Shown here: one piece after another, positions 26,913 to 56,040 of the stretch
How the letters are laid out: the number at the start of each line of letters is the position of its first letter
Position numbering within the stretch: position 1 is the first letter of the stretch
DNA from: Escherichia phage BF17
Strand: one strand, 5' to 3'
DNA: 64,000 bases
Sequence record: MW822008.1
The notes under the pieces: generated by a model
Told to the model about the DNA's origin: nothing
Databases searched by the model: none
Seen by the model: the letters and a program-made list of their open reading frames with translations, nothing else
Translations under genes and position numbers: made by a program

Positions 26913-27155
26913 ATGAAAGTACTGACAGAAATAGAAATGTATCATAGATTTAATAAGTACTATCATTTACTTAAGCCTATACAGAGGATTAAATGTCCAT
27001 TTGAAGAGAAACAGGTTTTAATCTATGAGCACAAGTTCTTTGTATCATTAGGTACAGATCAACAAGAGTACTATTTGACGTTGTACTTGATTACATTAAT
27101 AGATTTAATTCACTATAAAACCAAACAAGCTAATAAAGAGAAATATGAAAACTAA
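26913..27155 (+). CDS. family A paralog (SLGTDQQE)
   Basis: internal ATG of ORF 26880. Confidence 0.6.
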   Translation: MKVLTEIEMYHRFNKYYHLLKPIQRIKCPFEEKQVLIYEHKFFVSLGTDQQEYYLTLYLITLIDLIHYKTKQANKEKYEN

Positions 27156-27489
27156 TATACAACTCAAGGTATATAAATCATTTGAACATACATATATCAA
27201 AAGTAGTCTATGTAGAGATGTAATGGATTACAAGGGTAAGCCATTCACAATTACCTATGATTCTTATGTTAGTGATTTATATATATCATTTGTTAATTAC
27301 GAAAATAAAATATACAAGCACGTTGATATTAAAGATTTAAGTACTTTATCACCAGAGGAATACTTTCAGGAATCATTAGTATGGGATTTAGAGTTTCCTA
27401 TGCCATTAGTACATAAGATGATAGTACTAATGAAAGAATCTAAACAGGAGCCTAATGGTGATTATGAAGAACACACAGTTGAGTACTGA
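27145..27489 (+). CDS. family B paralog (PEEYFQESLVWD)
   Basis: ORF track; conserved acidic-aromatic FQ motif in C-terminal third. Confidence 0.65.
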   Translation: MKTNIQLKVYKSFEHTYIKSSLCRDVMDYKGKPFTITYDSYVSDLYISFVNYENKIYKHVDIKDLSTLSPEEYFQESLVWDLEFPMPLVHKMIVLMKESKQEPNGDYEEHTVEY

Positions 27490-27850
27490 TAATATTAAGA
27501 GTTATACAAGCTCAAGTACTGTGACAATCGAAGTGAATTCTATTAATGCTGGTAATGCAGTAGATAAGTTCTTTATTGCTCAAGGGTACAGGAAAGATAT
27601 TCATCAATATTGTTCAGTATATGGGGAGTACAATAGTACTGAAGATATAATTTATTGGTCAACACATCAAGATTATCTAACTAAAATTGGCGTTCCAGAT
27701 GTTAGTACTTTATCTGAAGAAGAATACTTTCAGTACAGCTTAGTACATGATGTACCTATACCTTTAGGGTTAATCAAGGGTATACAGGAAGAGGTTCATA
27801 AGCTTAAATCCATGAGTAAAGGTACTTTCATTAGAACAGTGCAATACTAG
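27455..27850 (+). CDS. family B paralog (EEEYFQYSLVHD)
   Basis: ORF track; RBS AGGAG. Confidence 0.65.
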   Translation: MVIMKNTQLSTDNIKSYTSSSTVTIEVNSINAGNAVDKFFIAQGYRKDIHQYCSVYGEYNSTEDIIYWSTHQDYLTKIGVPDVSTLSEEEYFQYSLVHDVPIPLGLIKGIQEEVHKLKSMSKGTFIRTVQY

Positions 27851-27851
27851 C

Positions 27852-27880
27852 TTGACAGTACTTTTCATTACTGATATAGT
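27852..27880 (+). promoter_or_regulatory. sigma70-like promoter (TTGACA-17-TATAGT)
   Basis: TTGACA 27852-27857, TATAGT 27875-27880. Confidence 0.55.
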
Positions 27881-27911
27881 ACCTGTACGTTAATCATTAG
27901 GGTAGAAAATT

Positions 27912-28157
27912 ATGTTAAATTTTTTAAATTTCCTTATCGTCTTGTGTATTGTTCTTGGGATTGCACCATTTGTATTGTATTTCATGGATTCAGATGAAAT
28001 GCAGAAGATGAATTGCACAAGGACAGGACAGAGTAGAGTAGAGACGATTCTTATGCCTGTTACGGTTATTGTTAACAACATGCCCATTACGAACATGGTC
28101 CCTACCCTAACGACAACGTACCAGTACTCTTGTGCTGACGGAGAGAGGTGGAGATGA
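27912..28157 (+). CDS. small membrane protein (81 aa) with N-terminal TM helix
   Basis: MLNFLNFLIVLCIVLGIAPFVLYF hydrophobic segment. Confidence 0.6.
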   Translation: MLNFLNFLIVLCIVLGIAPFVLYFMDSDEMQKMNCTRTGQSRVETILMPVTVIVNNMPITNMVPTLTTTYQYSCADGERWR

Positions 28158-28465
28158 AATTTAATATAGCAAAAACATCTAATATATGTATATTTGGTTA
28201 TGCCGAAGAGTTGGGTGATATTGACATTCTTTTGTACAAAAAGGATGGTGTTATGCATTTCAAGTACCAGGATGAAGAGGCAGACAATTATCTTTTACCT
28301 AATTTAGTACAAATGCAGGAAGATGAATTATTCCAGTACAGCTTAGTATACGACATTGATATTTGCACGATGCCAGTACTAATTAGTATTCAAAAAGTGA
28401 TGCTCGATATGTATGATAAGCTAATACAAGGTATGTCAGGGAGGATCATTGAAATTGACATATAA
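28148..28465 (+). CDS. family B paralog (EDELFQYSLVYD)
   Basis: ORF track. Confidence 0.65.
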   Translation: MEMKFNIAKTSNICIFGYAEELGDIDILLYKKDGVMHFKYQDEEADNYLLPNLVQMQEDELFQYSLVYDIDICTMPVLISIQKVMLDMYDKLIQGMSGRIIEIDI

Positions 28466-28661
28466 GAATATACCTAATGCATATGAAATGAAGTACAGGG
28501 AGTTTATTAAAAATGTACACACCGATCCTTTTAATATCAAAATATCAGATTTTGATGTATTATTTTATCTAGGGACAATAGCACAGGATCAATGCGTTGA
28601 TAAGCTCATATGGTCCTTGAAAATGGAGATACAATGCAGACCCAAATATATAAAAAGGTAG
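28449..28661 (+). CDS. family A-like paralog (YLGTIAQD)
   Basis: ORF track. Confidence 0.55.
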   Translation: MKLTYKNIPNAYEMKYREFIKNVHTDPFNIKISDFDVLFYLGTIAQDQCVDKLIWSLKMEIQCRPKYIKR

Positions 28662-28897
28662 ATTCTTTATTGTACGCTTCAAAGTACAGGGATTTTTGTT
28701 TACGAGGGGGAGAGGAAGATTTCTCTCTGAGATTATCTGAATTTAATATGTTATTTTATCTTGGTACAAAAGATCAAGAAGATACAGTACAGAAATTTAT
28801 CAAGCACCTTGAACAAAAAATTCATATGCAAATTTTTATGCTTAAGGTACATAATGAGATAAACAAATATGAACCCAACAATAGTACAGGATCTTAA
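28634..28897 (+). CDS. family A-like paralog (YLGTKDQE)
   Basis: internal ATG of ORF 28610. Confidence 0.55.
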   Translation: MQTQIYKKVDSLLYASKYRDFCLRGGEEDFSLRLSEFNMLFYLGTKDQEDTVQKFIKHLEQKIHMQIFMLKVHNEINKYEPNNSTGS

Positions 28898-29403: not shown

Positions 29404-29607
29404 ATGCAAAAGATTAATACGATAACATTAAATGCATTACAGGATTCATTATTAGATAGTATTAAGATGTATTACAATATACATTTGAAGGGTGGTATTG
29501 ATGATTACGATTATTATTTGAGTTTAATTACATTTGAGCACCTTTCAGTACAGGACAGGATTTTACATCCTACAAATCCTAGGTATCCATCGATAGGTAA
29601 ATTATGA
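29404..29607 (+). CDS. hypothetical protein (67 aa)
   Basis: ORF track. Confidence 0.5.
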   Translation: MQKINTITLNALQDSLLDSIKMYYNIHLKGGIDDYDYYLSLITFEHLSVQDRILHPTNPRYPSIGKL

Positions 29608-30158
29608 ATGAGATAGAGTTATTAGCACACAAGATAAGTACAATAATGCTTATCCTCAATAACAACCATCCTATATCGCAGATAGATGGAATCCTGAGTC
29701 AGAGGACAGGTGGTAGTTTATATTTGTCCATAAACGCAGATATCGCAAGGAAATACATTGATATTGACATTGATGTTGAAATCGAATATGATACAACGGG
29801 GATTGTTGGTGTAGGTGCATTAATCAGTTCAAATCCAGTATCAGCATCCCCATTGACCAAAGATGTTAGTACAGGATTCGAAGGGTATTTGTGGTACAAT
29901 ACCAATGATGATTATTTTATATATCAGCATTCCAATACAAATTATGATGAAGACAAATTTCAGTTCATAGACCCTTATGATGAAGCTGAAGTATTTCAAA
30001 AATCATTAATCACAAAACCGCATGAGATGATGTATCTAATTTTATTCAGTACAATGCATTTGAATCCATTAATTAAAGGTTTAAAATTTTATATTCAATT
30101 AAATTTAGTCCATGTAGTTTATGATTTATTAATGCAAGGATATAGTTATGAAGTATAA
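29604..30158 (+). CDS. family B-like paralog (EAEVFQKSLIT; C-terminal LIKGLKFYIQ)
   Basis: ATGA overlap; copy 1 of a tandem segmental duplication. Confidence 0.65.
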   Translation: MNEIELLAHKISTIMLILNNNHPISQIDGILSQRTGGSLYLSINADIARKYIDIDIDVEIEYDTTGIVGVGALISSNPVSASPLTKDVSTGFEGYLWYNTNDDYFIYQHSNTNYDEDKFQFIDPYDEAEVFQKSLITKPHEMMYLILFSTMHLNPLIKGLKFYIQLNLVHVVYDLLMQGYSYEV

Positions 30159-30241: not shown

Positions 30242-30748
30242 ATGAATGAGATAGAATTATTAGCACACAAGATTAGTACAGTAATGCTTATGCTCAAGAA
30301 TAATCATTCTATGCATAAGTACATTTATATAGGTGATTTACGCATAGAAGATAGATATGATAAATTATCGTTTTTGTTTAAAGATGAAAGTAATGCAAAA
30401 GTTTGTTTTGCAGCATTTGCCCAAGGCAATCCAGAACAAGCATCTCCTGTTATATACGAAAATAGTGAAGGGTATTTGTGGGTCAACACAAACGATTATT
30501 TCTTTTATGATTTGAAACAAAATGATGAAGTAGAAGCACGAATTGATTTAATTGATATTAGTTCAGATTGTAGTTCTGAATTATTTCAGAAATCGTTATT
30601 ATACAGTCCTCGTCAAATACATTATCTAAAGTTATTCAGTTCATTGTACGCGAATCCTTTAATTAAGGGTTTTAAATTTTATATCAAAATTCCGTACCTT
30701 TCAAACGTTTATGATATTTTGATGCAAGGATATAGTTATGAAGTATAA
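30242..30748 (+). CDS. family B-like paralog (SSELFQKSLLY); copy 2 of duplication
   Basis: N-terminus MNEIELLAHKIST shared with 29604 gene. Confidence 0.65.
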   Translation: MNEIELLAHKISTVMLMLKNNHSMHKYIYIGDLRIEDRYDKLSFLFKDESNAKVCFAAFAQGNPEQASPVIYENSEGYLWVNTNDYFFYDLKQNDEVEARIDLIDISSDCSSELFQKSLLYSPRQIHYLKLFSSLYANPLIKGFKFYIKIPYLSNVYDILMQGYSYEV

Positions 30749-31049
30749 AATGATGTATACCCCAGATATGATTTATGTTGAATTAGAAGATGATGACGAT
30801 GGGTGGAATTTGATTTATTCAAGAAGTTCAGGTTGGTACATGGCACATTTAAATGATTCGATAGTTACAGATTATTTTGTAGATTTCAATACATTATCCG
30901 ATGAAGAATTGTTCCAACAGCAATTAGTGATTGACACGGGTGGTTATGATGTCTTATTATTAAAAAAGATACAGAAAGCTGTTATTGATTTTAAGCCCAT
31001 GATATGGCAAAGGAAATATTATGACCTCGAAGTACCGTACCAGCAATGA
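30738..31049 (+). CDS. family B paralog (DEELFQQQLVID)
   Basis: ORF track. Confidence 0.65.
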   Translation: MKYKMMYTPDMIYVELEDDDDGWNLIYSRSSGWYMAHLNDSIVTDYFVDFNTLSDEELFQQQLVIDTGGYDVLLLKKIQKAVIDFKPMIWQRKYYDLEVPYQQ

Positions 31050-31587
31050 TATTCAGTACACCTACGCTAATGCAATCCTTATGGGACAAAAGTTAGCTTG
31101 TATTGTTGCAGCCTTATATAATGCACAGAAAGATTACAAGCGTCACATCCACAAATGTATTGGTATTATTCCATCGAAGTACAATACATATATTACGTGC
31201 ACGAGTCATTTTGATAAACGATTCAATACACCTGATAACCCAAATGCCCGTAGTGTTATTGGTCTTTTGGATTTTGCCCCTGGGGCTGTTATTGGAAAGA
31301 ATGATTTAGAGTACGCATGGTATAATAAAAATTCCCCATTAGTAATGGTAACATATAATAAAGAAACGAACAAAACAATAGAGTACAATACATATAAATC
31401 AGAGGAAGAATTTTTCCAAGGTTCAATGCTTGTACCAGTGCGTTTGTTATTTTATAATGTCATAATGAGTACAGTACACAATAGTCCATTACACAAGAAT
31501 CACAAAATTAATTTCAATTTTTGTGCTTATGCGATTGATGGTGTTTATGAGTGCTTAATGGAGATATTGAGTTATGAAGCTGAATAA
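31021..31587 (+). CDS. family B paralog (EEEFFQGSMLV)
   Basis: ORF track. Confidence 0.6.
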   Translation: MTSKYRTSNDIQYTYANAILMGQKLACIVAALYNAQKDYKRHIHKCIGIIPSKYNTYITCTSHFDKRFNTPDNPNARSVIGLLDFAPGAVIGKNDLEYAWYNKNSPLVMVTYNKETNKTIEYNTYKSEEEFFQGSMLVPVRLLFYNVIMSTVHNSPLHKNHKINFNFCAYAIDGVYECLMEILSYEAE

Positions 31588-31915
31588 TACATTTGATATT
31601 AATAAGTTAAGAGAATGGTTTTATAGTATTGAAATTGAAGCCATCCCGTATCATAGATATGAACAATATAATTTAACCAGTATTGATATCAGTGAGTTGT
31701 ACGCGTATTATCAAAGTGCATTAGAGATGCATAAGTTATTTTTGAGTACAGATTTTGTTCTAAATTACAATTTTGAGGAATTTAAAAATTATAATTTAGT
31801 ACAGAAATATGTAGTAGCAAAGTACATGTACAATCAAGGAATCAAAGGTTGCATCGAATTCAATACCGTTCTTGTTTTAGTTGAGGTAATTTTATGCACC
31901 GCATGTCTGATTTAG
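31574..31915 (+). CDS. hypothetical protein (113 aa)
   Basis: ORF track. Confidence 0.5.
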   Translation: MKLNNTFDINKLREWFYSIEIEAIPYHRYEQYNLTSIDISELYAYYQSALEMHKLFLSTDFVLNYNFEEFKNYNLVQKYVVAKYMYNQGIKGCIEFNTVLVLVEVILCTACLI

Positions 31916-32400
31916 AGTTCAGTTTAGATGCAGCATTTAAATTTGTTCACAAAATAGAAACAATATACAGTACATTATGTGCAATAACATCAGTATCAAA
32001 AGAGCTTGATGTTGGTGAAAGGTATCAGGTGTGGAATAATTCATTTTTTAATAAAGAACATTCTTCGACGGCATTTTATATTTTAGCATTTAATCCCACC
32101 AATTGTTACCCAGAGAAGCATGAACGTTATCCGAATGACGACATGTGGTTTGAGTACAAAGAAGATTCTTATATGTCGTCAATTGTAGTTCCTGATGATT
32201 TTAATGCACAAGATTTAACAGAAGAGTGGTGGTTCCAGCAGAATTTAGTACATGATGATATTGATTTATTTTTCTATATTGCATTTAAAATGCTTTATCA
32301 CAACAATATAGTTAAAGAAAGTGTATCGTTTTCATGTCTATATATTGATGATTTGTACAATGAAATTCAAATAAACATGCCCAGAACGCCTGTATCGTAA
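31894..32400 (+). CDS. family B paralog (EEWWFQQNLVHD)
   Basis: ORF track. Confidence 0.65.
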   Translation: MHRMSDLEFSLDAAFKFVHKIETIYSTLCAITSVSKELDVGERYQVWNNSFFNKEHSSTAFYILAFNPTNCYPEKHERYPNDDMWFEYKEDSYMSSIVVPDDFNAQDLTEEWWFQQNLVHDDIDLFFYIAFKMLYHNNIVKESVSFSCLYIDDLYNEIQINMPRTPVS

Positions 32401-32425
32401 GATATGGGCTTTTTTCGTTTTGGTA

Positions 32426-32454
32426 TTGACATAGAAGACCAAAGCTGTTATCAT
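32426..32454 (+). promoter_or_regulatory. sigma70-like promoter (TTGACA-17-TATCAT)
   Basis: TTGACA 32426-32431, TATCAT 32449-32454. Confidence 0.55.
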
Positions 32455-32482
32455 GTGTAATCATTTTAAAGGAGAACATATA

Positions 32483-32995
32483 GTGAGTTTCATAATCCCA
32501 AGTACATACGAAGATGCATCAAGTGCAGTTCATAAGATTCATTATATTTTTAATTTAATTATTAGATCTGCAAAAATTAAAATGTATGCACCTCTTGTGA
32601 CAAATAATCGAAATGAAGAAATTTTTATTAGCACAGACAAAATTATTTTTCCATCTTTCCATGAAGATAGATTGTGGTTCATGCATTTAGCTGCATTACA
32701 AAAATATAAAATGTCAATTCGTAATAATTTGGATATACCGTTATATCATCCTGATATTGGAGAGGATGAATATTTTCAGTACAGTACAGTACACCGCCAT
32801 GAAGATATCTTTGTTGCTATGCTTATTGCTAAATTGAATACCGTTGATTTGGAGCAGCACAAATATAATAATACATCATGTAAGATCATAATCCCTGCAT
32901 TCATAGCTCTTTATGATTATGTGGTGCATAACATAAAAGATGATACATATGCTTTCAATGAAGAGTATTTGGATTTTTTTAAGGAGAACATATGA
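32483..32995 (+). CDS. family B paralog (EDEYFQYSTVH)
   Basis: GTG 32483 with RBS AAAGGAG; track start 32453 lies in promoter. Confidence 0.6.
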   Translation: MSFIIPSTYEDASSAVHKIHYIFNLIIRSAKIKMYAPLVTNNRNEEIFISTDKIIFPSFHEDRLWFMHLAALQKYKMSIRNNLDIPLYHPDIGEDEYFQYSTVHRHEDIFVAMLIAKLNTVDLEQHKYNNTSCKIIIPAFIALYDYVVHNIKDDTYAFNEEYLDFFKENI

Positions 32996-33522
32996 GCAGT
33001 ACAACAGTACAGAAAGCAATGTCATTCAATGAAATTGGTACATTTAAAGATAAGATCATTGATTGCCTTGAATACATGATTTGTAGTAATATCGAAAGTA
33101 TCGAGATATTTAACAAGACAAATCGCTCTTACCATATGATGTACATTGCAAACAATAATGGTATCATTCCATTTATTTCGGATAGTACAATATGGTACGC
33201 ATGTGATACGAAAAAAACCACAATAGGTTTACATTTATTTGAGACACATTATGATCTAATTATTCCTGAACATTGTATGCAAGAAGAAGAATATTTTCAA
33301 ATGCAATGTATACATTCACCATTAGTGTTGTTTAGTTTATATATTATACCTTATATCACCAAATGTGTTCATGAGAATAAAGCTCCGTGGAATCATGAAT
33401 TTGTATCGTTGAAGTTATTGTATAATGTATTAGTAGAATATTATGATTACAGGCACAATGGTACAATCAGTGATGTATGGGATTTTGAATCGCTAAGGGT
33501 GAAAACATACACAGGTGAATGA
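32992..33522 (+). CDS. family B paralog (EEEYFQMQCIH)
   Basis: RBS AAGGAG; ATGA overlap. Confidence 0.65.
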   Translation: MSSTTVQKAMSFNEIGTFKDKIIDCLEYMICSNIESIEIFNKTNRSYHMMYIANNNGIIPFISDSTIWYACDTKKTTIGLHLFETHYDLIIPEHCMQEEEYFQMQCIHSPLVLFSLYIIPYITKCVHENKAPWNHEFVSLKLLYNVLVEYYDYRHNGTISDVWDFESLRVKTYTGE

Positions 33523-34138
33523 TATGACCAGAATTAAAATGTATGATTTGATGCAGTACAGTAAAATTGCCATTCCAGTGCTTAATAAAGTGCTGGATGC
33601 ATTCATTGCCAAATACCCTGAGAATTCAGTGTTATGTATTCCATTTAGCGTTCCAGATAAAGATGATATATTCCAAGTGAATGTCAGTACACGTGGTATT
33701 ACATTACAGCAGAAATACATGGATACGGAATATTATGGAATAAAGTTGGATTCAGTACAGGGTTCAAAATCAGCCTATGATTTTTTTGTTCCTAATAATA
33801 TAGAGTCATGGGAAACAAACATTTCAAAGAAAGATGAAAATGATGTTCCTATTAGTGGTGTGTTCAACAATAAAGTTTTTTATTATTACGAAACCGACAA
33901 ATTCCCTGAAGAGTTATATTACAATTCAGAAATGAATGAAGATGTAGATGCATTCATGTTTCAATTATCTTTAGTACATGATATCATTGATGTTCAAGAG
34001 TTAAGAGCAGAAATCAATTTAGCTAAAGAGTTATCGGACATGCTGCCACCGTTTAGTATGCTTTTTTGTGAAGGTGGTTATTTTTCAAAAGAAGTGTTTG
34101 AACATTTCGTAGATGTTGTAAAAGGGTTGGATATATAG
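33515..34138 (+). CDS. family B paralog (DAFMFQLSLVHD)
   Basis: ORF track. Confidence 0.65.
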   Translation: MNDMTRIKMYDLMQYSKIAIPVLNKVLDAFIAKYPENSVLCIPFSVPDKDDIFQVNVSTRGITLQQKYMDTEYYGIKLDSVQGSKSAYDFFVPNNIESWETNISKKDENDVPISGVFNNKVFYYYETDKFPEELYYNSEMNEDVDAFMFQLSLVHDIIDVQELRAEINLAKELSDMLPPFSMLFCEGGYFSKEVFEHFVDVVKGLDI

Positions 34139-34139: not shown

Positions 34140-34334
34140 ATGCTTACAGTTGATGTTAAACAAAAATACCGTAAGTTTGATTGGTTCACCGATAGTTTCC
34201 AGCTTGAATTATTACATATGAATATCAGTGAAACATTATGTGCAGAAACACAAGATGAATTTGATGATAGAGTGATGAACATAGTAATGCTTTCTTGCTT
34301 TAAACATTTTGGTTATTTTTTCGGACAGAATTGA
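34140..34334 (+). CDS. hypothetical protein (64 aa)
   Basis: ORF track. Confidence 0.45.
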   Translation: MLTVDVKQKYRKFDWFTDSFQLELLHMNISETLCAETQDEFDDRVMNIVMLSCFKHFGYFFGQN

Positions 34335-35196: not shown

Positions 35197-35206
35197 GGAA
35201 AGTACA

Positions 35207-36357: not shown

Positions 36358-36369
36358 AGACGTTTCATT

Positions 36370-36400
36370 TTGACAGGCCGCTGGAGGGGGTCAAAAAAAT
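36370..36400. repeat. GC-rich palindromic island TTGACAGGCCGCTGGAGGGGGTCAA in AT-rich array
   Basis: TTGAC / GTCAA arms flanking a 15-nt GC-rich core, followed by A-run. Confidence 0.45.
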
Positions 36401-48169: not shown

Positions 48170-48680
48170 AGATGATATTCTAATTAGACTAATTAATAGT
48201 TTAATAAAGTTCTCAAATAATGATGTCGATACATACAAAGTAGGGGATATTGAATACAAATCATTTGGTATGTACGGTGAGGATAAAACATATTATGCGT
48301 CAATGAAATTTCAAGATTTTCACGAGATGTTAATATCGTTATCATATGAAGATGTTGATCCAAGATGGAGTTCCAGTATTTCACTATCGAGAATGGTAAT
48401 TCGTAGTAAGCATCGTTATATTTCGTCAAAGAATACTCCTAACTTGATTAATATTGTGTTGAATGAAAATACAAATCCCCTATCTAAACATGATATCGTA
48501 CCGTTAACCGATGAAGTTCTTTTTCAATTGAGTACCATTTGTGATGAAGATGTGATATCATGTATGAAAATTTATGAGAAGGTTGGGAGTGATATTCCTA
48601 TGAACTATTACCTAACTATAGATGGAACGTACCTTCGAGATGATGTTTTAGCGTACATTGACAGTGTTTTACCAAAATAA
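48162..48680 (+). CDS. family B paralog (DEVLFQLSTICD)
   Basis: ORF track. Confidence 0.65.
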   Translation: MDKDDILIRLINSLIKFSNNDVDTYKVGDIEYKSFGMYGEDKTYYASMKFQDFHEMLISLSYEDVDPRWSSSISLSRMVIRSKHRYISSKNTPNLINIVLNENTNPLSKHDIVPLTDEVLFQLSTICDEDVISCMKIYEKVGSDIPMNYYLTIDGTYLRDDVLAYIDSVLPK

Positions 48681-48703
48681 AGACCCGTATGGGTCTTTTT
48701 GTG
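48680..48703 (+). terminator. Rho-independent terminator
   Basis: hairpin AGACCCgtatGGGTCT then TTTTTG. Confidence 0.7.
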
Positions 48704-48755
48704 TTTATGGCTTTACAAGAGCATTCAGGTGTGTTATACTTGATTTTAACTAGAG

Positions 48756-49334
48756 TTGGAGGAATCTATGAGTACTGAATTAATTAAAGAAGTCACATTA
48801 CTTCTGAAGCATTGTTTTAAGTTCATTCCTGATACTGGCTCACGCCAGTACATTAAAGTTAATGAGAAATATAACATCAATATCCTTGTATCTGAAACTG
48901 CGAGCAGTTATGCAAACATTGAGTTGGATTCTGAAGAAAAATATACAGTATTACAAATCATAGCAGATGTACAACGTAAACAAGATTATCGTTCTTCATT
49001 TTACAACGATCATCTGTGTGTTTGCTCAAACTTCAGTGAGAATAAAATTGTGTATAAGAATTTATACACACATGAAGTGATTGATACATATAATTATAAA
49101 ATTTCATCTGATGAATACAATGTTCTAATGTTCAACGCAAACCTTTTGTATGATGCCAGTACTGTACGCTGTTTAGAGTTAGCATATAAAATTCCAAAGA
49201 TCATGGAAAGAAAAGATTTGATTCACTTTAAAACTATTTTAAAATACAGTACAAAAGAATTAGAGGATTTAGTACAGGCTCTTAAGAATTTCATTAATGA
49301 ACATGTACCTGTTAAATTCGAGGATGCACAATGA
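48756..49334 (+). CDS. hypothetical protein (192 aa), family B-like
   Basis: RBS GGAGG. Confidence 0.65.
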   Translation: MEESMSTELIKEVTLLLKHCFKFIPDTGSRQYIKVNEKYNINILVSETASSYANIELDSEEKYTVLQIIADVQRKQDYRSSFYNDHLCVCSNFSENKIVYKNLYTHEVIDTYNYKISSDEYNVLMFNANLLYDASTVRCLELAYKIPKIMERKDLIHFKTILKYSTKELEDLVQALKNFINEHVPVKFEDAQ

Positions 49335-49915
49335 ACCATATCAGAACTAAAATTTTGAGACTCATGCATGACATTGCAGAACTTTCAGAGATTCATGACA
49401 TTACAGAAATTGTTGAATTTGATAATTATCGACTGAAAATTGAAAACAAATCCAAACATCGTTTTGGTTCAGTTCAGTTGGATGTATATAAAACTTATGA
49501 ATTTTCTAAAAAAATTAAAAGTTCATGGGATACGATTACTATGTACATTCGCACATCCAGAAATCGTGAACGTATTGGTTCTATTTCTTCTAATATGGTA
49601 TTTGCGAATGCATTACATGAAAAAATGAATAAAATTGTAGAATCTGATTTCAGTGAAGATGATGGTTTTATTGGGTTGGATGTTCCACCAGAATTAGACC
49701 AAAGTGAAGATATTCGAGATGCATTCATTTTCCAGAAATCATTGTTGGACAATTACAAAGAATTCGAGTACTTAATGCTTTGTTACGATACTGCAAAAGT
49801 TCTTGATTGTGGTGAACTAGTTATGTACAATGATTTTATCAATTACAAGACTGATGTTCTGAATACACTACTTCAAAATATAGAATCGGTTAAGGAAAAA
49901 TATGAACGCTTATAG
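49331..49915 (+). CDS. family B paralog (DAFIFQKSLLDN)
   Basis: ATGA overlap. Confidence 0.65.
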   Translation: MNHIRTKILRLMHDIAELSEIHDITEIVEFDNYRLKIENKSKHRFGSVQLDVYKTYEFSKKIKSSWDTITMYIRTSRNRERIGSISSNMVFANALHEKMNKIVESDFSEDDGFIGLDVPPELDQSEDIRDAFIFQKSLLDNYKEFEYLMLCYDTAKVLDCGELVMYNDFINYKTDVLNTLLQNIESVKEKYERL

Positions 49916-50483
49916 TTATATGACAGAACGCCATCAGTTATTATATGATATCAGTAAAAAAATGCTATCAATTGTTGGTAGTGCGAAAGAAATTGAAAAA
50001 CAATATCTCATCCGTGATGTATCAATTTCATCCAAATGTTGGTCAAATGAATATTACGACCACGGTATTCTTACTATTTCTGGGGCCAGAAATATTTGTA
50101 TTGTAAAAAATAAAAGTAAAAGTAATGAAGAGTGTGAGATTAGAACCGATATACAAATTAAGGATGATGGAAGTTTTTCACATCACCCATTCCATATTAG
50201 TACTATTGGTGTTTTATATAATATTAAAGTACTATTCGGTGATGAAGAGTATGTGTTAAAAGCTATCAATCCAGATTCAAGTACAGTTGAAGAAGAACTG
50301 TTCCAGATGAGCACTGTTATACCTGAAGAGGTTCTTAGTACTGTTGTTTTTTGTAGTTTAATTTATCATACATACAAAAAGAACCAATTCGATTTCCACA
50401 TTTTAGGAACGTACATCTTCAATACTTTGAATGTTGATCGTTTAAAAGCATTAAATGCAGCAATGGATAAGGTGCTACAATGA
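49902..50483 (+). CDS. family B paralog (EEELFQMSTVIP)
   Basis: ORF track. Confidence 0.65.
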   Translation: MNAYSYMTERHQLLYDISKKMLSIVGSAKEIEKQYLIRDVSISSKCWSNEYYDHGILTISGARNICIVKNKSKSNEECEIRTDIQIKDDGSFSHHPFHISTIGVLYNIKVLFGDEEYVLKAINPDSSTVEEELFQMSTVIPEEVLSTVVFCSLIYHTYKKNQFDFHILGTYIFNTLNVDRLKALNAAMDKVLQ

Positions 50484-50908
50484 CAAGAGATGATTGTTTG
50501 TACATATGGGATATAATTGAAACTACACTTTCAAATCCAGAAAATTATAAAACAAAAAAAAGACAACGACACAAAATATGGATAGATTTGTTCGTTGAGG
50601 GCATACACGCAGTGACTATTTGGGATTCACCGAGGGCATCAGCATCTACTCTATTGGACAATGAATGCATTGATTGCATTAATTCCACTTTTCATCTCTA
50701 CGGTACTACATTTTTCGGTACATTTCTGGATATTGAAAGTAAAGATGATATTGATTCACTTGCGTTACAATACCAAGTACTGTATAATACTAAATTAATT
50801 TACGATTTAGTACTAGCTTCTTATGTGTATAAATTAATGATGAAATATAATCATATTTCTGTTTCAGTTTATACTAAGGATATTCTTTCATTAAGAGACA
50901 AAACATGA
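50480..50908 (+). CDS. family B-like paralog (SLALQYQVLYN)
   Basis: ATGA overlap. Confidence 0.55.
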   Translation: MTRDDCLYIWDIIETTLSNPENYKTKKRQRHKIWIDLFVEGIHAVTIWDSPRASASTLLDNECIDCINSTFHLYGTTFFGTFLDIESKDDIDSLALQYQVLYNTKLIYDLVLASYVYKLMMKYNHISVSVYTKDILSLRDKT

Positions 50909-51414
50909 GTTTATTAAATGCACGCGAATTAGTTGAGATGTATGAGATTTTGTCTTCATATAAAAATTCTCATGGAGATGTGATTCTCGACAAAAAGTTC
51001 CATGTCAGTGTTGAACATATATCAAATATAGATATGATTTCTTTGGTGGAAAGTGATAAGTCAGGTCTTGAACGCGATATCATGCGTTTGATTTATATTC
51101 CCAAACCATCATATACTAATGATAGTTCAATTAGTAATGAGACATTCATGTATAGTCCTGGTACGGATTCTACTATAGTATCGCTGTCCAATAAATCAAT
51201 GGGTACTTTCCAATTCATCTATACCAGTACTGATAACATTGAAGAAATTGAATTTCAAAACAATACATTAAGTCCATGTAGTAGTGTTATAACCTTTATG
51301 TCATATCTATGGTCAACTAAAACAAGTGCTGTTGTATATAGTTCAAATTATACACAAGATAGTATTGTTGAATCATATAAAGTTCTAAAGGAATACTATG
51401 AAAATAACAAATGA
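50905..51414 (+). CDS. family B-like paralog (EEIEFQNNTLSP)
   Basis: ATGA overlap. Confidence 0.55.
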   Translation: MSLLNARELVEMYEILSSYKNSHGDVILDKKFHVSVEHISNIDMISLVESDKSGLERDIMRLIYIPKPSYTNDSSISNETFMYSPGTDSTIVSLSNKSMGTFQFIYTSTDNIEEIEFQNNTLSPCSSVITFMSYLWSTKTSAVVYSSNYTQDSIVESYKVLKEYYENNK

Positions 51415-51979
51415 TTTTATTAAAAGTGTAGTACACCCTATGCTTAGTATTATGAAAAAAATACAGAATCTACCGGAAGATAACGATTACAAGTTTAATC
51501 GTTTTGATTCAGATGTGTTTTGTATTGAAATTGAAATTAATAACAATCGCAATTTACATTTAAAATTCAAAGAATCGTCAAGTCCGTACTACAACTTTGA
51601 TATGAATTTTAAAATAGATACTGACATTGAAGAAAACGTAATATCAAATCATACTAGCAAAAATGGTTTTATGCATAGAACTACTATGTACAATAATAAA
51701 AATAGTATTATATCTAAATGGAATCATCAATTCACTAAAATTTGTGAAATTGAATATAGTGATTTTGGTGAAGAGAATTACTTTCAGTTAAGTACAATTC
51801 ATGAACTTCCACCGTATGATTATGTTAAAACATGGTTTGATATTCATAATATAATTGATGATGCAATCAAACTTCCATTTGGTGTGTCAATATCATATAC
51901 TGCTCCTAAAACATTTGTTTTTACTGAAGATATGATTATGAAAAAGATATGGGCAATTATCCCACTTATGATGGATTAA
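51398..51979 (+). CDS. family B paralog (EENYFQLSTIHE)
   Basis: ORF track. Confidence 0.65.
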   Translation: MKITNDFIKSVVHPMLSIMKKIQNLPEDNDYKFNRFDSDVFCIEIEINNNRNLHLKFKESSSPYYNFDMNFKIDTDIEENVISNHTSKNGFMHRTTMYNNKNSIISKWNHQFTKICEIEYSDFGEENYFQLSTIHELPPYDYVKTWFDIHNIIDDAIKLPFGVSISYTAPKTFVFTEDMIMKKIWAIIPLMMD

Positions 51980-51983: not shown

Positions 51984-52011
51984 GTACCAGGGGTTGACTC
52001 TGGTATTTTTG
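51984..52011 (+). terminator. Terminator hairpin overlapping a TTGACT -35 box
   Basis: ACCAGgggttgactCTGGT then T-run; RBS AAAGGAG downstream. Confidence 0.55.
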
Positions 52012-52040: not shown

Positions 52041-52592
52041 ATGAACTACAATCATGATCTTTTTACATTATGTGCATCCAAATGTGTTGATGGATGGACA
52101 GATAAAATCAATACCATAATTCATCGATATCTGGTCTTTAGTTCTCGTGCACGAAGTGAGGGGGCTATGGATTTCAAATATACACTATCTATTGATGGTG
52201 TAACTATCCATGCAGACGAAGAACGTCTGAGCATTAATTTGTATGATTCCTGTGTATTTGCTATTCACCAAAAGATGGGGAAAGGATGGGGTTGTAATAA
52301 CATTAACTCAAAAGCTATCTTTTGGGTTGGTCACCACCAGACAGTACTTGATCCTTCAATCAAATCTAATCTTTTATCCGATAATATGGTTTATGATTTA
52401 TTGTACTCCGAAGAACAACATTTTCAGTTAAGTACATTACATGATCTGGCACAGTACGAGGATTGTTACAAAACATTAGAACTATGCCATTCCCTTGAAC
52501 TTAAAGATAAATTGATACAAGTTTACCCTTCATTCTTTCATGAAGAAGTACAAAGTACACTAGATCATATTTTATATGGATACGATAAATGA
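52041..52592 (+). CDS. family B paralog (EEQHFQLSTLHD)
   Basis: RBS AAAGGAG. Confidence 0.65.
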   Translation: MNYNHDLFTLCASKCVDGWTDKINTIIHRYLVFSSRARSEGAMDFKYTLSIDGVTIHADEERLSINLYDSCVFAIHQKMGKGWGCNNINSKAIFWVGHHQTVLDPSIKSNLLSDNMVYDLLYSEEQHFQLSTLHDLAQYEDCYKTLELCHSLELKDKLIQVYPSFFHEEVQSTLDHILYGYDK

Positions 52593-53191
52593 GAAAAAGT
52601 TATCAAGAAGCTATTGACTTAATTCGTGAAGTTATCAAGGTGGCTCCTGCTGCTATTGAGTTCAAGAAGTCCATATACAAGAAGTATGGTTCAATGTCGA
52701 GTATGTGCTTTCAAAAGAAACGTAGAGCATTCACTACCCAGTACTGGAATGATTCTATCATCCTGAGCAATGAGACTCAGCGTATTTTAACACTAGAATC
52801 TGAACCTAATGAGTACGGGGAAGGGAACATTTGTGTACCTGATTATGATGAAATTAACTTCAACTGCGGTGATTTTGAAACAACATTATTACTTCATGAG
52901 GGTTATCCAGAAGGTGATGTATTAGCTGAGTACAATCCAAAAACTAAAATTCTCAAAAGAGGAATCCAGTTCACTATTAATAACAAAGATGATGTTCAAG
53001 CAGCACTGATGCAACTGAGTACAAGTGAACCTATCACTATTAGTGTAGAAGAGTTATGGGGAATTATTTCAGTACTCAATGAGTGCTACAAAGTAAAATC
53101 ATTGCGTAAACACAGCATTATATTACATACCAATATGGCAAATATAAAATGTAAGCACATTCAAGAAATGGTGGTTCCAGATGGACTTTAA
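52589..53191 (+). CDS. family B-like paralog (QAALMQLSTSEP)
   Basis: ATGA overlap. Confidence 0.55.
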   Translation: MRKSYQEAIDLIREVIKVAPAAIEFKKSIYKKYGSMSSMCFQKKRRAFTTQYWNDSIILSNETQRILTLESEPNEYGEGNICVPDYDEINFNCGDFETTLLLHEGYPEGDVLAEYNPKTKILKRGIQFTINNKDDVQAALMQLSTSEPITISVEELWGIISVLNECYKVKSLRKHSIILHTNMANIKCKHIQEMVVPDGL

Positions 53192-53765
53192 AGAAATTGA
53201 AAGTAAATTAAAGTACTTCAAAGATATCAAACTTCTTTGGAAAAAGTATAAAGTTGATTACAATTTCAGTGATGATGAGACAATAAAATACATTGAGATT
53301 AATATCAAAATCAAGTTCAAGAATAATAATTATGGTGAAGTAACCTTAAATCATACTGGTATATCACTCAAGGACTATGATGGTACAACACTCGCATATT
53401 TTGACTTCACACCAGAACCAGGTGAAACACTACTTAGTGAGATAAATTCCTATGACATGGAAGTGTTCGGCGGGAATCCGTTACTGTTCCGACTTTCTGA
53501 AGAGTGGAGTGAAGAGTACTACACTTACAAAGATGGTGTAGTACTTGATATTCATGGAGAAGTTGTGAATGACTTGGAAGAACGTTTGTTCCAAGAATTG
53601 TGTGTTTCAAATACTTCATATGCATACAATCATATCCTTGACATGTTTGATTTATATAGTAAAATAGATGCTGAAATGAAGGCACATGGTATTCATTACC
53701 TTACAATTAACGACTATGCTCAACTCGAAACCGCTGTGAAAGCATTGACTAAAGTACTGAAATAG
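53181..53765 (+). CDS. family B-like paralog (EERLFQELCVSN)
   Basis: ORF track. Confidence 0.55.
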   Translation: MDFKEIESKLKYFKDIKLLWKKYKVDYNFSDDETIKYIEINIKIKFKNNNYGEVTLNHTGISLKDYDGTTLAYFDFTPEPGETLLSEINSYDMEVFGGNPLLFRLSEEWSEEYYTYKDGVVLDIHGEVVNDLEERLFQELCVSNTSYAYNHILDMFDLYSKIDAEMKAHGIHYLTINDYAQLETAVKALTKVLK

Positions 53766-53774
53766 GAATGAAAT

Positions 53775-54188
53775 ATGAAACTGTATCATGCGAGTACTGT
53801 AAAAATTGATAACTTTTATATCCCGTATGGTGGTCTTCATATGGGAGGTAAACACAGTGCTTTGGAAGCTGCATTACGCAAGCTGAGAAGCCCACTGAAC
53901 GTAGTAGACGCATGTACAGTATACTTGCATACCTTAGAAGTTGATGTTGATAACGTGCTTCTGTGTGAAGATTTAGGCAGTGATGATGAGTGGCGTTCAC
54001 TTATTGAGAATTGCACTGCTCAAGGTTATGATGCTGTTCAGTACAAAAATGATTACGAGCCAGACAATGTTCCTAGCTTTATGATTTGGGATGCATCTAA
54101 AGTTCGCATCATTGAAGTTGATGCTATGCATATGGATGAAGCTGAAATGATTATCGAAGATTTTCTTGATGAATATGAAGGTGTATAA
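53775..54188 (+). CDS. hypothetical protein (137 aa), not a family A/B member
   Basis: ORF track; RBS AGGAA. Confidence 0.6.
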   Translation: MKLYHASTVKIDNFYIPYGGLHMGGKHSALEAALRKLRSPLNVVDACTVYLHTLEVDVDNVLLCEDLGSDDEWRSLIENCTAQGYDAVQYKNDYEPDNVPSFMIWDASKVRIIEVDAMHMDEAEMIIEDFLDEYEGV

Positions 54189-54724
54189 TGTCTGAACCGA
54201 TGGTAGCACTGGCACGTACAAAATTACTATTAAAGATTGGTGAGATTTTTACGGTTCTTCTGTCCAATAATATTGATATCACTGAGCTAGATATTAAGCA
54301 ACCGTGGGAAGTGACTATGTTCTCGGCGTTCCACCGATTGTCATATAAAGGTGAAAGTGTTCTTGATTTTAACCCTAAAGCAAAATTCATAGATTATGCT
54401 GCGTTGTACAGAGAGTTGCACAGAAATATTTATTCCGGTTGTATAACCAATAACTTCAAAGAAATTAAAGTTCAAACTGCATCACATGAGTTCAATGATT
54501 TACTTTATCCAGAATTTAATCTAACGGAAGAATTACTCTTTCAGTACTCGTTAATTCTCACAAATCTCGAAACACTAGAGTTCTACAAAGAGTTAGTAGA
54601 TATTTTTATGAATACACGACTTTCAAAAGATATTGTGATATTCTGGTATACAGAGCATGTTACGGAGGAATTGCTTACTGAATTTCTTCTAAATATGACA
54701 GCTATAAAGGAGAAGTTATGTTAG
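54188..54724 (+). CDS. family B paralog (EELLFQYSLILT)
   Basis: ORF track. Confidence 0.65.
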   Translation: MSEPMVALARTKLLLKIGEIFTVLLSNNIDITELDIKQPWEVTMFSAFHRLSYKGESVLDFNPKAKFIDYAALYRELHRNIYSGCITNNFKEIKVQTASHEFNDLLYPEFNLTEELLFQYSLILTNLETLEFYKELVDIFMNTRLSKDIVIFWYTEHVTEELLTEFLLNMTAIKEKLC

Positions 54725-55191
54725 ATATTTTAGGAAACATCGATACTGCAAATTATTTTATCCAGGACGCACTGTTCAATACAGTTCAACAAGGATTAGA
54801 AGTTCGTCATAACGTTTACCAAGGTGATGGTTATTTCGTTGATATTGTTGAGGCACGAAAGAATACGTTTAATGTTAACATTACAACACTGGGTAGACAG
54901 AACATTGCACGAATTTTAGTAAGTAAAGATGAAATTGTATTGAGATACAGTGCTAAGTTTATGTTGACTTATAAGAAAAAAACTGATATGTTCAGTACTA
55001 ATTTATTTGATGAGCCATTTGACCTTGAAGATATTGAAGCTACTTTCTTTACTCAAAGTACTATGGTAAAATACACTGATGTTCAATTTTCTGCTGATGT
55101 AATGTCAGAAACATTACAAATGATCAAGGTATTATTTTATGCATTTGAGCAATTTAGAGAAGAAAGAAACAAGGTTAACAACCACAGATGA
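54718..55191 (+). CDS. family B-like paralog (EATFFTQSTMV)
   Basis: ORF track. Confidence 0.55.
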   Translation: MLDILGNIDTANYFIQDALFNTVQQGLEVRHNVYQGDGYFVDIVEARKNTFNVNITTLGRQNIARILVSKDEIVLRYSAKFMLTYKKKTDMFSTNLFDEPFDLEDIEATFFTQSTMVKYTDVQFSADVMSETLQMIKVLFYAFEQFREERNKVNNHR

Positions 55192-55552
55192 ACTAATAGA
55201 GGCGATGACTAAGGAGTCAAAATACCACAAAGGGATTCGTCTATATTTTATAGATATTGGTTCAATGGAAGGCATATACATTTATGGTTCACAATCTTTA
55301 TCTTATGATGTAATGCCAAAAAAACATGTAAAAATCTTTTTAGGTTCAAATAAAAAAACTTTCTTGACAATTAATGATAAAAACGTTATTATGAATTCGT
55401 TGGGTCATGATAAGGTGGAAATTGATCTAAACACACTGGAGGATATTGATTTTTTTCAATACGAGTGTTTAGGTGTTGACTTACATGGCATTAGTAGCGA
55501 TATGATAAAATCATTAATCAAATATTTCGAAGGTGTTCATAAATGTATCTAA
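55139..55552 (+). CDS. family B-like paralog (IDFFQYECLGVD)
   Basis: ORF track; true start may be ATG 55205. Confidence 0.5.
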   Translation: MHLSNLEKKETRLTTTDELIEAMTKESKYHKGIRLYFIDIGSMEGIYIYGSQSLSYDVMPKKHVKIFLGSNKKTFLTINDKNVIMNSLGHDKVEIDLNTLEDIDFFQYECLGVDLHGISSDMIKSLIKYFEGVHKCI

Positions 55553-56040
55553 CTAAATCAATGAAAAATTCATTTGATAAAATCAAGAGTTGTCTTGATG
55601 GGGAAAATATTACAAGTGTTACACAAACTGCTGACCAAATTCAAAGCAGTTCAAGTGATTGTACTGTTATTTTAGGTTTACATAGTCTACGTTTATCAAT
55701 AGTAAATAATATTGACAACACTGCTATTGTAATCACACCATGCCATATTCAAAATGAGAATGGTGTATATCTTCATCACATGGGAACAGTATTTCATATT
55801 TTCAATACAAACGAAAACATTGTTAAGGAATACAATACTCTTAATATTGATTCAGGTGAATTATTTCAAATGAGTACTTTGTACTCATGTAATTTTACAG
55901 ATACTTCATGTATTTTGCCATTTTTCTTGGAAATTATTAAGAAAATGGAAAATTTAAAACGTGAATACAATAAAGAAATGGTTCCTGAAGCTATATTAAA
56001 TATTACTAATGCTATAGAGAAGTATAATGCAGTGACTTAA
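55543..56040 (+). CDS. family B paralog (SGELFQMSTLYS)
   Basis: ORF track. Confidence 0.65.
   Translation: MYLTKSMKNSFDKIKSCLDGENITSVTQTADQIQSSSSDCTVILGLHSLRLSIVNNIDNTAIVITPCHIQNENGVYLHHMGTVFHIFNTNENIVKEYNTLNIDSGELFQMSTLYSCNFTDTSCILPFFLEIIKKMENLKREYNKEMVPEAILNITNAIEKYNAVT

Follow-up and report, generated by a model that had tools for sequence, protein, structure and literature searches.

A lineage-specific family of divergent paralogs sharing an FQ motif in an Asteriusvirus jumbo coliphage

The terminal repeats of the large virulent phages T5 and SPO1 hold host-takeover modules, the T5 pre-early region and SPO1 gp37-60, in which many small, non-structural, co-directional genes lie at the leading end of the genome behind host-type promoters. 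Here we analyse a 64,000-nucleotide stretch of Escherichia phage BF17 (record MW822008.1; hereafter the window), in which positions 27145-56040 carry a comparable run of small genes, many of them encoding members of one divergent protein family that we call family B. The array resembles the T5 and SPO1 modules in the respects just listed, its host-type promoters being putative. However, the genes of those modules lie inside the repeat, whereas family B lies just inside the genome from it; there is no sequence similarity between them, and the modules hold unrelated genes, whereas family B comprises about 40 paralogs of one fold.

Multigene families are also known from large eukaryotic DNA viruses, among them the poxvirus genomic accordions and the multigene families MGF360/505 of African swine fever virus (ASFV) (PMC13359090). 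Like family B, these are tandem paralogs near a terminus that change in copy number between strains and form the fastest-diverging part of the genome; they differ in virus realm and host, have no domain in common with family B, and any role of family B in host range or immune evasion is putative. Phage G carries a lineage-specific expansion of ~35 zinc-ribbon proteins (Iyer et al. 2021, PMC7824862), which resembles family B as a set of about 35-45 small, functionally uncharacterised paralogs in a jumbo phage. The phage G proteins, however, can be recognised as Zn-ribbons, a fold that points to nucleic-acid binding, whereas family B is acidic, poor in cysteine and of no known fold.

The region itself has been mentioned before. 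Hua et al. 2017 (mBio, PMC5646251) noted an array in phage 121Q in one sentence and read it as a tandem duplication contributing to genome expansion, a remark repeated in a 2026 review (PMC13282480); the RaK2 paper counts ~10% of the gene products as paralogues, and the CBB paper lists 22 paralogous open reading frames (ORFs). None of the four defines the family, its motif, fold, cross-genus spread or function. Hua et al. deal with the same phage group and region and give the same tandem-duplication reading, but their single sentence does not specify which of two arrays, family B or a neighbouring family A, was meant, and it neither defines a family nor describes a motif, a structure, a distribution or a function. 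The '>30 very similar genes' of that paper may be family A. Family B is an uncharacterised, lineage-specific multigene family, of the sort known from the early regions of large viruses.

Definition of family B

Megablast with positions 36000-44000 matched 35 phage records, with 95-99% nucleotide (nt) identity to the Asteriusvirus jumbo coliphages CRJP21, G17, phAPEC6, PBECO4 and 121Q (~350 kb), and the genes under the match were all annotated 'hypothetical protein'. By these matches the window is that of an Asteriusvirus jumbo coliphage of the 121Q/PBECO4/phAPEC6 group, in agreement with a first-pass annotation that, from the letters alone, had taken the genome to be phage-like. The GC content of the array is 30-35%, and transcription runs on the + strand across the whole window. 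One family B member is 100% identical to a protein recorded for Escherichia phage BF17.

Pairwise all-against-all phmmer comparison joined 33 ORFs in one component, family B, and placed 29 ORFs at 21175-27155 in a separate component, the ~70-amino-acid (aa) family A. A profile hidden Markov model (HMM) iterated within the window extended family B to 41 members; iterated over the window plus six related phage genomes, which together formed the training set of this cross-genome HMM, it reached 44, namely 43 in the interval 27145-56040 and one at 20723-21088. Among the remaining ORFs, hhalign gave weak signals only, at 47067 (68%), 55139 (71%) and 53181 (31%), and the sequence searches together put the copy number at about 43-46. 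The first-pass annotation had described ~55 paralogs making up almost every gene of the interval. The array is real, but the profile searches give 43 members in the interval (up to ~46), and the second part of the description was overstated: about one third of the ORFs there are not detectable members, four of them belonging to family A (28449, 28610, 42082 and 42278) and ~20 having no detectable relationship. The members are 103-207 aa long and occupy 20.4 of the 28.9 kb.

Family A has 29 members of ~56-104 aa that are mostly basic (median isoelectric point (pI) 8.6) and carry the motif [GD]-T-[ND]-F-Q; it is found at 21175-27155 plus 28449-28897 and 42082-42469, and also in RaK2 (LGTNFQ). 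A relationship of families A and B via their common 'FQ' was considered and rejected, the hhalign probability being <1%.

The family B motif, [ST]-E-E-x-φ-F-Q-x-S-[TL]-φ-[YH]-D, lies about two thirds along the protein (median 0.67 of its length). The strict form FQxS[LT] occurs in 32 of the 68 ORFs inside 27145-56040 and in none of the 92 outside it, whereas residue shuffles gave 0.19 on average and 2 at most; FQ itself is present in all 43 in-region members and missing from the upstream member at 20723-21088. In a non-redundant set of 140 members, drawn from five phages that represent at least four lineages, the F is kept in 138, the Q in 132 and the S in 112, and the two acidic positions before FQ are E or D in 122 and 120, while the remaining protein has a mean column identity of ~12%. 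The motif is not, as had been claimed, the only shared feature, since a Y-[IL]-x-[YF] strand, an aromatic strand and a D ~15 residues before the motif are also conserved, and the motif is followed by a hydrophobic helix and then a C-terminal F-Y-[IL]-D strand. The conserved acidic or polar residues are N80, D91, D98, E109, E110, Q114, S116 and D120; positions 31-58 of the reference protein, in contrast, are rich in insertions and deletions (indels), with occupancy <0.35.

Two subgroups proposed in the first-pass annotation reappeared as BLAST clusters: B2, at 38185-40506 plus 41122-41571, with the N-terminus MSLQSALEKAKK... and WYFK...FYLD, and a short form, at 36557-38175 and 43618. The members are acidic (median pI 4.96), above all those of B2 (pI 4.05-4.25, net charge -14 to -26); several have a net charge of -20 to -26, and three are neutral or basic. 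They are also rich in aromatic residues (14%) and poor in cysteine (1.8%), and count as soluble, with no transmembrane segment in any of them.

AlphaFold2 (AF2) modelled the 39588 protein with a mean predicted local distance difference test score (pLDDT) of 89.2 and a predicted template modelling score (pTM) of 0.82. The order of elements in the model is a helix at 3-21, seven strands, short helices at 99-103 and 109-115 (the EEYYFQ segment), a helix at 121-135, a strand at 141-144 and a helix at 145-153. The motif forms a helix and a tight loop in residue blocks of mean pLDDT 97, and from the secondary-structure map S/T108 before E-E and D120 after the motif would be helix N-cap positions. 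A second model, of the short form encoded at 43618, had a pLDDT of 71.8 overall, yet was confident at the motif; it was not used for fold searching. All members would be built on one alpha/beta scaffold with an N-terminal helix, a sheet of about seven strands and a motif-bearing helix-loop-helix, a scaffold without a counterpart in the PDB.

The segment Q-x-S-L-x-[FY] resembles the clamp-binding consensus QL[SD]LF, a likeness that served as a lead only. In the AF2 model the motif is not on a flexible terminus or loop, as would be expected of a sliding-clamp ligand. We rejected the motif both as a flexible clamp-binding peptide and as a site for a protease of the tobacco etch virus (TEV) or 3C type (E-x-x-Y-x-Q|S), because it lies in the confidently folded core; the two likenesses retain a place only within the unlikely adaptor explanation discussed below.

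The first-pass annotation did not recognise the family, and neither did the databases. Scans of Pfam, NCBIfam and PADLOC (10, 41 and 44 members) gave no recurrent match, a sequence-profile search of the PDB gave nothing even at E up to 10, and comparison of the AF2 model with PDB folds gave no match. In a viral structure library the only neighbours were uncharacterised proteins of 121Q, RaK2, GAP32, Yersinia fHe-Yen9-03/04 and Serratia BF. The PHROGs database holds family B proteins in 29 groups (9317, 12674, 13866, 15629, 34017, 19795 and 23 others), all of 'unknown function'; these are the same proteins, split up, and neither the unifying superfamily nor the motif is recorded there. No annotated Pfam, PHROG or NCBIfam match to known takeover proteins was found. 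A 10-member profile run against a collection of 5.8 billion proteins found 25 clusters, of which the named ones were all hypothetical and none had a Pfam domain; several were on contigs of ~350-380 kb or in E. coli or Salmonella-phage records. A metagenomic relative carries the same array, with no precomputed Pfam hit on any of its 46 genes. A single-protein search for related loci in IMG/VR returned only 121Q itself, and tblastn with the HMM consensus had no match in other genera.

Coding status, selection and turnover

The ratio of non-synonymous to synonymous substitution rates (dN/dS, or omega), pooled over family B and its 121Q orthologs, was 0.30 (370 synonymous and 506 non-synonymous differences), compared with 0.15-0.16 for the flanking genes, and no gene exceeded 0.6. 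Substitutions between orthologs were least frequent near the motif (0.037 per site, against an overall 0.06) and most frequent in the N-terminal half. At the invariant sites the synonymous codons vary (F, TTT 24 and TTC 19; Q, CAG 25 and CAA 18; S, AGY 22 and TCN 12), indicating that conservation is at the level of the protein and not of the DNA. The motif as a regulatory or recombination site in the DNA is ruled out by this synonymous turnover, which includes both serine codon families. Of the 44 starts, 25 are preceded at 4-18 nt by a Shine-Dalgarno core, a 12-fold excess over other ATGs in the region (4.6%). As the first-pass annotation had stated, the genes are co-directional and tightly packed: the + strand carries every ORF of 100 aa or more in 27145-56040, 79 of the 101 junctions at 20-58 kb overlap, and 26 of these 79 are 4-bp stop/start overlaps of the ATGA type. 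The dN/dS values, the Shine-Dalgarno enrichment and the common stop/start overlaps argue for real genes. That family B is a real, selectively maintained, non-virion multigene family is, in our judgement, very probable.

With the HMM trained on the window, the member counts were 39 (phAPEC6), 38 (121Q) and 34 (JNE01), rising to 43, 42 and 38, respectively, after cross-genome iteration. The Klebsiella phage RaK2 has 29 members (33 after iteration) with the same EE..FQxS[TL] motif, Salmonella phage 7t3 has 19, and six were detected in Xanthomonas phage XaC1. In phAPEC6, 121Q, JNE01, RaK2, 7t3 and XaC1 the array lies upstream of a conserved block with a ~284-aa ORF, a Dam methyltransferase and a cytidylyltransferase; a region of the Pseudomonas phage Paride picked by cytidylyltransferase synteny had no array. 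Directly 3' of the BF17 array, the 284-aa ORF is at 56714-57568, a position kept in Asteriusvirus, RaK2 and related phages, and is itself strongly diverged, with 35% identity to JNE01 and 27% to RaK2.

The 44 members fall into 33 BLAST clusters (E <1e-8), four of which are common with RaK2 and one with 7t3. This bears out the earlier impression of a diversified expansion; with the ~12% column identity, it does not fit the 'very similar' of Hua et al. 2017 (PMC5646251). Comparison of the 38-kb array region with itself at the nucleotide level gave just 21 matches, indicating that most duplications are old or that divergence is fast. Recent events are nevertheless visible, and the copy-number variation that the first-pass annotation proposed to look for in relatives was found. 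The second copy of the 29604/30242 pair is absent from phAPEC6 and 121Q, these phages have one extra gene at window position 43983, the B2 cluster has six copies here versus four in JNE01, and a truncated copy lies at 36931. In addition, a 113-bp patch of 88.5% identity between two B2 genes may be the result of gene conversion.

Amino-acid identity to JNE01 was 97% for the terminal-repeat genes (92-97% nt), 40% for family A, 33% for family B and 65-71% downstream. For family B, 39 of 68 ORFs had a reciprocal best hit, and the best hits were roughly collinear. By this comparison the arrays are the fastest-diverging block of the region, with dynamics that resemble those of an arms race. Evolution of the family by duplication, fast divergence and loss (birth and death) is well supported.

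Four Salmonella 'Asteriusvirus' records (310-326 kb) differ from window positions 9-63 kb by dozens of clean gaps of 30-1400 bp. The gaps are spread through the compared ~49-kb locus, also outside the arrays, and one record, SD-1_S14 (OR699183), has 677 features, many of them <150 nt, in 311 kb. The gaps of these 'SD' phages are probably an assembly artefact and not natural genome reduction; we therefore did not use them as an indication that the array is dispensable.

Genome position, operon layout and virion content

Phage vB_Ec-M-J is 96% identical to the window over 3-9 kb and has 'Direct Terminal Repeats' annotated at 1-21525; its family A/B arrays begin at 21624, family A first, and thus adjoin the annotated repeat without lying inside it. 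The boundary that we use for BF17 is borrowed from this annotation. The CBB paper gives a terminal repeat of 22.5 kb, backed by read depth and pulsed-field gel electrophoresis, and its authors place CBB_390-546, which has RpoD-like promoters, among the early genes; from the common layout we infer that CBB_390-546 would correspond to the region described here.

Promoters and terminators were called as pattern matches. Within the arrays, strong + strand promoters were confined to a few gaps of >35 bp (21112, 27852, 32426, 44846 and 48712), and hairpins with a T-run, resembling terminators, to the same few gaps (32388, 48679, 51984 and 56668). The restriction of sigma-70-like promoters and terminators to rare gaps accords with the few long operons proposed in the first-pass annotation. 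The array would comprise ~7-8 polycistronic units with translational coupling, read early by the host sigma-70 polymerase.

Positions 1-21100 of the window, which correspond to the 21.5-kb direct terminal repeat annotated in vB_Ec-M-J, hold ~47 spaced small genes, each with an upstream promoter; the variant TTGCAA-16-TATAAT occurs there at least 12 times, always on the + strand. The first 20 kb have 10 perfect TTGACA-16/17-TATAAT promoters, again all on the + strand, and 109 promoter-like sites versus 67±8 in shuffles. A 28-nt hairpin, AAAG..TTGAYTYCGGTCAG..CTTT, is repeated there at 10266-10293, 13872-13899, 17140-17167 and ~19107-19134; its stem includes TTGAC, which is -35-like, and after the stem comes GCTATTATAT, which resembles a -10 element. 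The pattern has 6 matches versus 0.86 expected. This hairpin resembles the 'promoter early stem-loop' cassettes of T4-type phages.

The phAPEC6 orthologs, gp404c-gp466c, are not among the 62 virion proteins of that phage, and the RaK2 members, ORF321 and ORFs 362-440, are not among its 54. The absence of orthologs from the virion protein tables of both phages argues against the injected effectors that the first-pass annotation had listed among the possible roles.

RaK2 ORF321 (LTEEEIFQLSTVLD; 1419-2021 of the RaK2 stretch compared) is a family B member far outside the array and sits three genes after ORF318, a 'head maturation protease'. In 7t3, a run of six or seven genes, each ~1.1-1.2 kb long, is encoded on the minus strand at positions 1-7514 of the stretch compared, which lie upstream of the early region. 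These look like another paralog set, to be compared with the 40-kDa 'DNA condensation proteins' gp003-010 of the phAPEC6 virion.

Proposed host-interaction binders and rival explanations

The reading that we favour, at a probability of roughly 45%, is that the members of this lineage-specific family act early and in the cytosol as host-interaction binders, built on one shared scaffold and together forming a panel. The array would lie immediately inward of the left direct terminal repeat, within the leading portion of the genome, where host sigma-70 RNA polymerase would transcribe it early, soon after the leading end has entered, as ~7-8 coupled polycistronic units. The products would remain in the cytoplasm and not be packaged. 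The conserved helix-loop-helix and the aromatic strands would hold the fold, the indel-rich N-terminal half would give each paralog its own surface, and each copy would bind a host (or rival-phage) protein of its own and either neutralise it or redirect it, the array serving as a redundant host-takeover or counter-defence panel. Such a takeover or anti-defence arsenal, one of the options in the first-pass annotation, fits the repeat-adjacent position, the early-type promoters, the acidity and the extreme divergence. DNA-mimic anti-restriction proteins of the Ocr/ArdA type have a very acidic surface (pI ~4); here the median pI is 4.96, the B2 members reach 4.05-4.25 and three members are neutral or basic. 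Structural similarity to known mimics was not found.

Several observations weigh against this reading. No experiment, homolog or structural neighbour links any member to a host target or defence system. A literature search gave no Asteriusvirus transcriptome or infected-cell proteome, and early expression is only what we infer; moreover, counts of promoter-like sites in the array are not above those in shuffles, and the sites are consensus matches in AT-rich DNA. The alignment behind the AF2 model consisted of 41 window paralogs only. No gene has a dN/dS above 1, and the fast divergence could also be relaxed constraint, omega being twice that of the flanks; the identity of the repeat flank to JNE01, in turn, may reflect recent recombination, which would exaggerate the contrast with the arrays. 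Finally, the near-invariant polar Q (132/140) and S (112/140) exceed what a structural core usually needs, a hint of a shared site that fits adaptors or enzymes better than 43 independent binders.

The main rival, which we consider unlikely, takes up this last point: the invariant E-E...F-Q-x-S would dock all paralogs on one hub (a host protease, RNA polymerase, the sliding clamp or a phage hub protein) and the variable half would recruit cargos, much as in the substrate-adaptor expansions of large eukaryotic viruses. The high conservation of F (138/140), Q, S and the acidic pair (E/D 120-122/140) above the ~12% background, and the slow evolution of the motif region between orthologs, speak for such a dock. 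However, the motif forms a helix and tight loop flanked by apparent N-caps and core aromatics and may simply be a folding nucleus, and no partner is known. More doubtful still is the proposal that the 43 paralogs are interchangeable adaptors on a new fold that turn one host machine on dozens of targets; if true, this massively expanded, phage-encoded adaptor system would act in the first minutes of infection, with targets including defence proteins. The conserved acidic and polar residues (N80, D91, D98, E109, E110, Q114, S116 and D120) would also be compatible with small enzymes, in which E-E/Q/S/D form an active or metal site and each paralog modifies a different host substrate. This appears distinctly improbable, as there is no conserved His, Cys, Lys or Arg and no match in fold or sequence to any enzyme family, and the acidic residues are at typical helix N-cap positions.

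Two further explanations were considered. One is neutral filler, accumulated by tandem duplication once the capsid had become larger (the ratchet proposed by Hua et al. 2017), the copies having no individual function; it draws on the tandem-duplication reading of the 121Q array as a contribution to genome expansion, on an omega twice that of the flanks and on the existence of fragments and copy-number changes. We hold it to be quite unlikely, given that dN/dS is 0.30 and not ~1, that 43 intact ORFs keep their start/stop coupling and Shine-Dalgarno sites, that the motif is kept despite synonymous codon turnover, and that arrays of 19-38 intact members are maintained across genera at only ~30% identity. 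The other is that the proteins are packaged, as injected effectors or inner-body components like the T4 internal proteins or the phiKZ inner-body paralogs. Jumbo phages are known to package paralog families, and phAPEC6 has an inner body; yet with none of the proteins among the 62 phAPEC6 and 54 RaK2 virion proteins, and with the genes in an early region with sigma-70-type promoters and not in structural modules, packaging is barely credible.

Whichever explanation applies, the 43 genes span ~29 kb of a ~350-kb genome (~8%), and jumbo phages that infect E. coli, Klebsiella or Salmonella have arrays of 19-43 copies, while at least six can be detected in a Xanthomonas phage. The family definition merges 29 separate 'unknown' PHROGs into one unit with a motif, a scaffold and a list of members and operons. 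It provides a handle on the role of the 'dark' early genes of jumbo phages and on whether gene-family expansion drives phage gigantism, as in giant eukaryotic viruses. Several of these phages are under development for therapy against E. coli and Klebsiella, and a large hypervariable host-interaction panel, if that is what family B is, would matter directly for the range of hosts and for how well the phages withstand bacterial defence systems.

Table 1. Family B members, candidates and associated features of the window. Basis: phmmer, pairwise phmmer cluster; window HMM, HMM iterated within the window; cross-genome HMM, as defined in the text.
Feature	Coordinates	Strand	Length (aa)	Basis	Sequence	Remark
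Family B array	27145-56040	+				43 members with HMM support, plus 4 genes of family A and ~20 small unrelated ORFs; all in one direction
Member	20723-21088	+	121	phmmer		outlying, divergent, at terminal-repeat boundary, without FQ
Member	27145-27489	+	114	phmmer	SPEEYFQESLVWD	
Member	27455-27850	+	131	phmmer	SEEEYFQYSLVHD	
Member	28148-28465	+	105	phmmer	QEDELFQYSLVYD	
Member	29604-30158	+	184	phmmer	DEAEVFQKSLITK	one of recently duplicated pair
Member	30242-30748	+	168	phmmer	CSSELFQKSLLYS	extra copy not in phAPEC6/121Q
Member	30738-31049	+	103	phmmer	SDEELFQQQLVID	
Member	31021-31587	+	188	phmmer	SEEEFFQGSMLVP	
Member	31894-32400	+	168	window HMM	TEEWWFQQNLVHD	
Member	32453-32995	+	180	window HMM	GEDEYFQYSTVHR	
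Member	32992-33522	+	176	window HMM	QEEEYFQMQCIHS	
Member	33515-34138	+	207	window HMM	VDAFMFQLSLVHD	
Member	34343-34858	+	171	phmmer	TEESYFQQSLIYS	
Member	34855-35196	+	113	cross-genome HMM	DEAARFQYETAYD	
Member	35135-35749	+	204	window HMM	SDESLFQYSTMYD	
Member	36557-36934	+	125	phmmer	DDSALFQAALVFD	
Member	37092-37463	+	123	phmmer	SEEEFFQESTVWN	
Member	37463-37819	+	118	phmmer	DTAELFQESLVFD	
Member	37816-38175	+	119	phmmer	DDGELFQAALVFD	
Member, B2	38185-38676	+	163	phmmer	SEEYYFQQSTVYD	
Member, B2	38678-39148	+	156	phmmer	SEEYYFQQNTIYE	
Member, B2	39145-39588	+	147	phmmer	TEEYYFQQSLIFN	
Member, B2	39588-40076	+	162	phmmer	SEEYYFQNSTLYN	AF2-modelled protein
Member, B2	40054-40506	+	150	phmmer	SEEYYFQNSTVYD	
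Member	40503-40817	+	104	phmmer	HESFIFQESLVWD	
Member, B2-related	41122-41571	+	149	phmmer	TEEGYFQGSTVYE	
Member	42459-43019	+	186	phmmer	TEENIFQNSVLHD	
Member, short	43618-43980	+	120	phmmer	QEDELFQESLVWD	second AF2 model
Member	43970-44305	+	111	phmmer	DEGELFQESLVFN	junction with one more gene in phAPEC6/121Q
Member	44265-44849	+	194	phmmer	NQEYYFQLSLLFP	
Member	44909-45385	+	158	phmmer	TEEEFFQYSTVYP	
Member	45382-45876	+	164	phmmer	TEEMYFQESCIHD	sequence cluster common with RaK2
Member	45842-46204	+	120	phmmer	SEEELFQESTIST	
Member	46188-46601	+	137	phmmer	TPDELFQYSLVFP	
Member	46589-47083	+	164	phmmer	SEESYFQNSLIYT	
Member	47606-48169	+	187	phmmer	LESAMFQLSLIHN	sequence cluster common with RaK2
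Member	48162-48680	+	172	window HMM	TDEVLFQLSTICD	
Member	49331-49915	+	194	cross-genome HMM	RDAFIFQKSLLDN	
Member	49902-50483	+	193	phmmer	VEEELFQMSTVIP	
Member	50905-51414	+	169	cross-genome HMM	IEEIEFQNNTLSP	
Member	51398-51979	+	193	phmmer	GEENYFQLSTIHE	
Member	52041-52592	+	183	window HMM E=0.002; included by cross-genome HMM	SEEQHFQLSTLHD	
Member	54188-54724	+	178	window HMM	TEELLFQYSLILT	
Member, last	55543-56040	+	165	window HMM	DSGELFQMSTLYS	sole cluster common to Asteriusvirus, RaK2 and 7t3
Borderline candidate	47067-47609	+	180	hhalign 68% over 15 columns		
Borderline candidate	55139-55552	+	137	hhalign 71% over 41 columns	EDIDFFQYECLGV	
Weak candidate	53181-53765	+	194	hhalign 31%; HMM E=0.12	LEERLFQELCVSN	
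Truncated duplicate	36931-37095	+	54	nt self-comparison		N-terminal fragment of 37463 gene
ORF with motif remnant	34140-34334	+	64	regex scan only; without HMM support	DSFQLELLH	
Two family A genes	28449-28897	+	~70-95	phmmer		amid family B array
Two family A genes	42082-42469	+		phmmer		amid family B array
Sigma-70-like promoter	27852-27880	+			TTGACA-17-TATAGT	TG-extended, in 61-bp gap
Terminator-like hairpin	32388-32409	+				followed by T-run, operon end
Sigma-70-like promoter	32426-32454	+			TTGACA-17-TATCAT	TG-extended
Sigma-70 promoter, 12/12 consensus match	44846-44875	+			TTGACA-18-TATAAT	TG-extended, 59-bp gap
Terminator-like hairpin	48679-48698	+				
Promoter-like site	48712-48740	+			TTTACA-17-TATACT	TG-extended
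Terminator-like hairpin	51984-52006	+				in 61-bp gap
Terminator-like hairpin	56668-56688	+				after array

Some single entries of Table 1 deserve comment. For the gene at 36557, the mechanical ORF start, TTG at 36449, is probably wrong, the ATG at 36557 agreeing with the annotation of phAPEC6 gp447c. This ortholog of 36557-36934 (20540-20917 of the stretch compared) is annotated 'amidohydrolase 3', a name that is probably spurious, as there is no Pfam or NCBIfam support for it among the window members. In the truncated duplicate, 36932-37016 has 96.5% nt identity to 37461-37545 over 85 bp, and the ORF at 34140-34334, to judge from its motif remnant, is possibly a decayed family B member.

No tRNAs or Rfam families were found in the window. 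In the terminal-repeat region, pieces of positions 3000-9000 match 153 phage records at 76-95% nt identity, including unrelated smaller phages, such as the ~141-145-kb coliphages A7_1, A5-4 and LTH01, and records named Phapecoctavirus, Justusliebigvirus and Campylobacter. These matches suggest horizontal exchange of small early gene cassettes.

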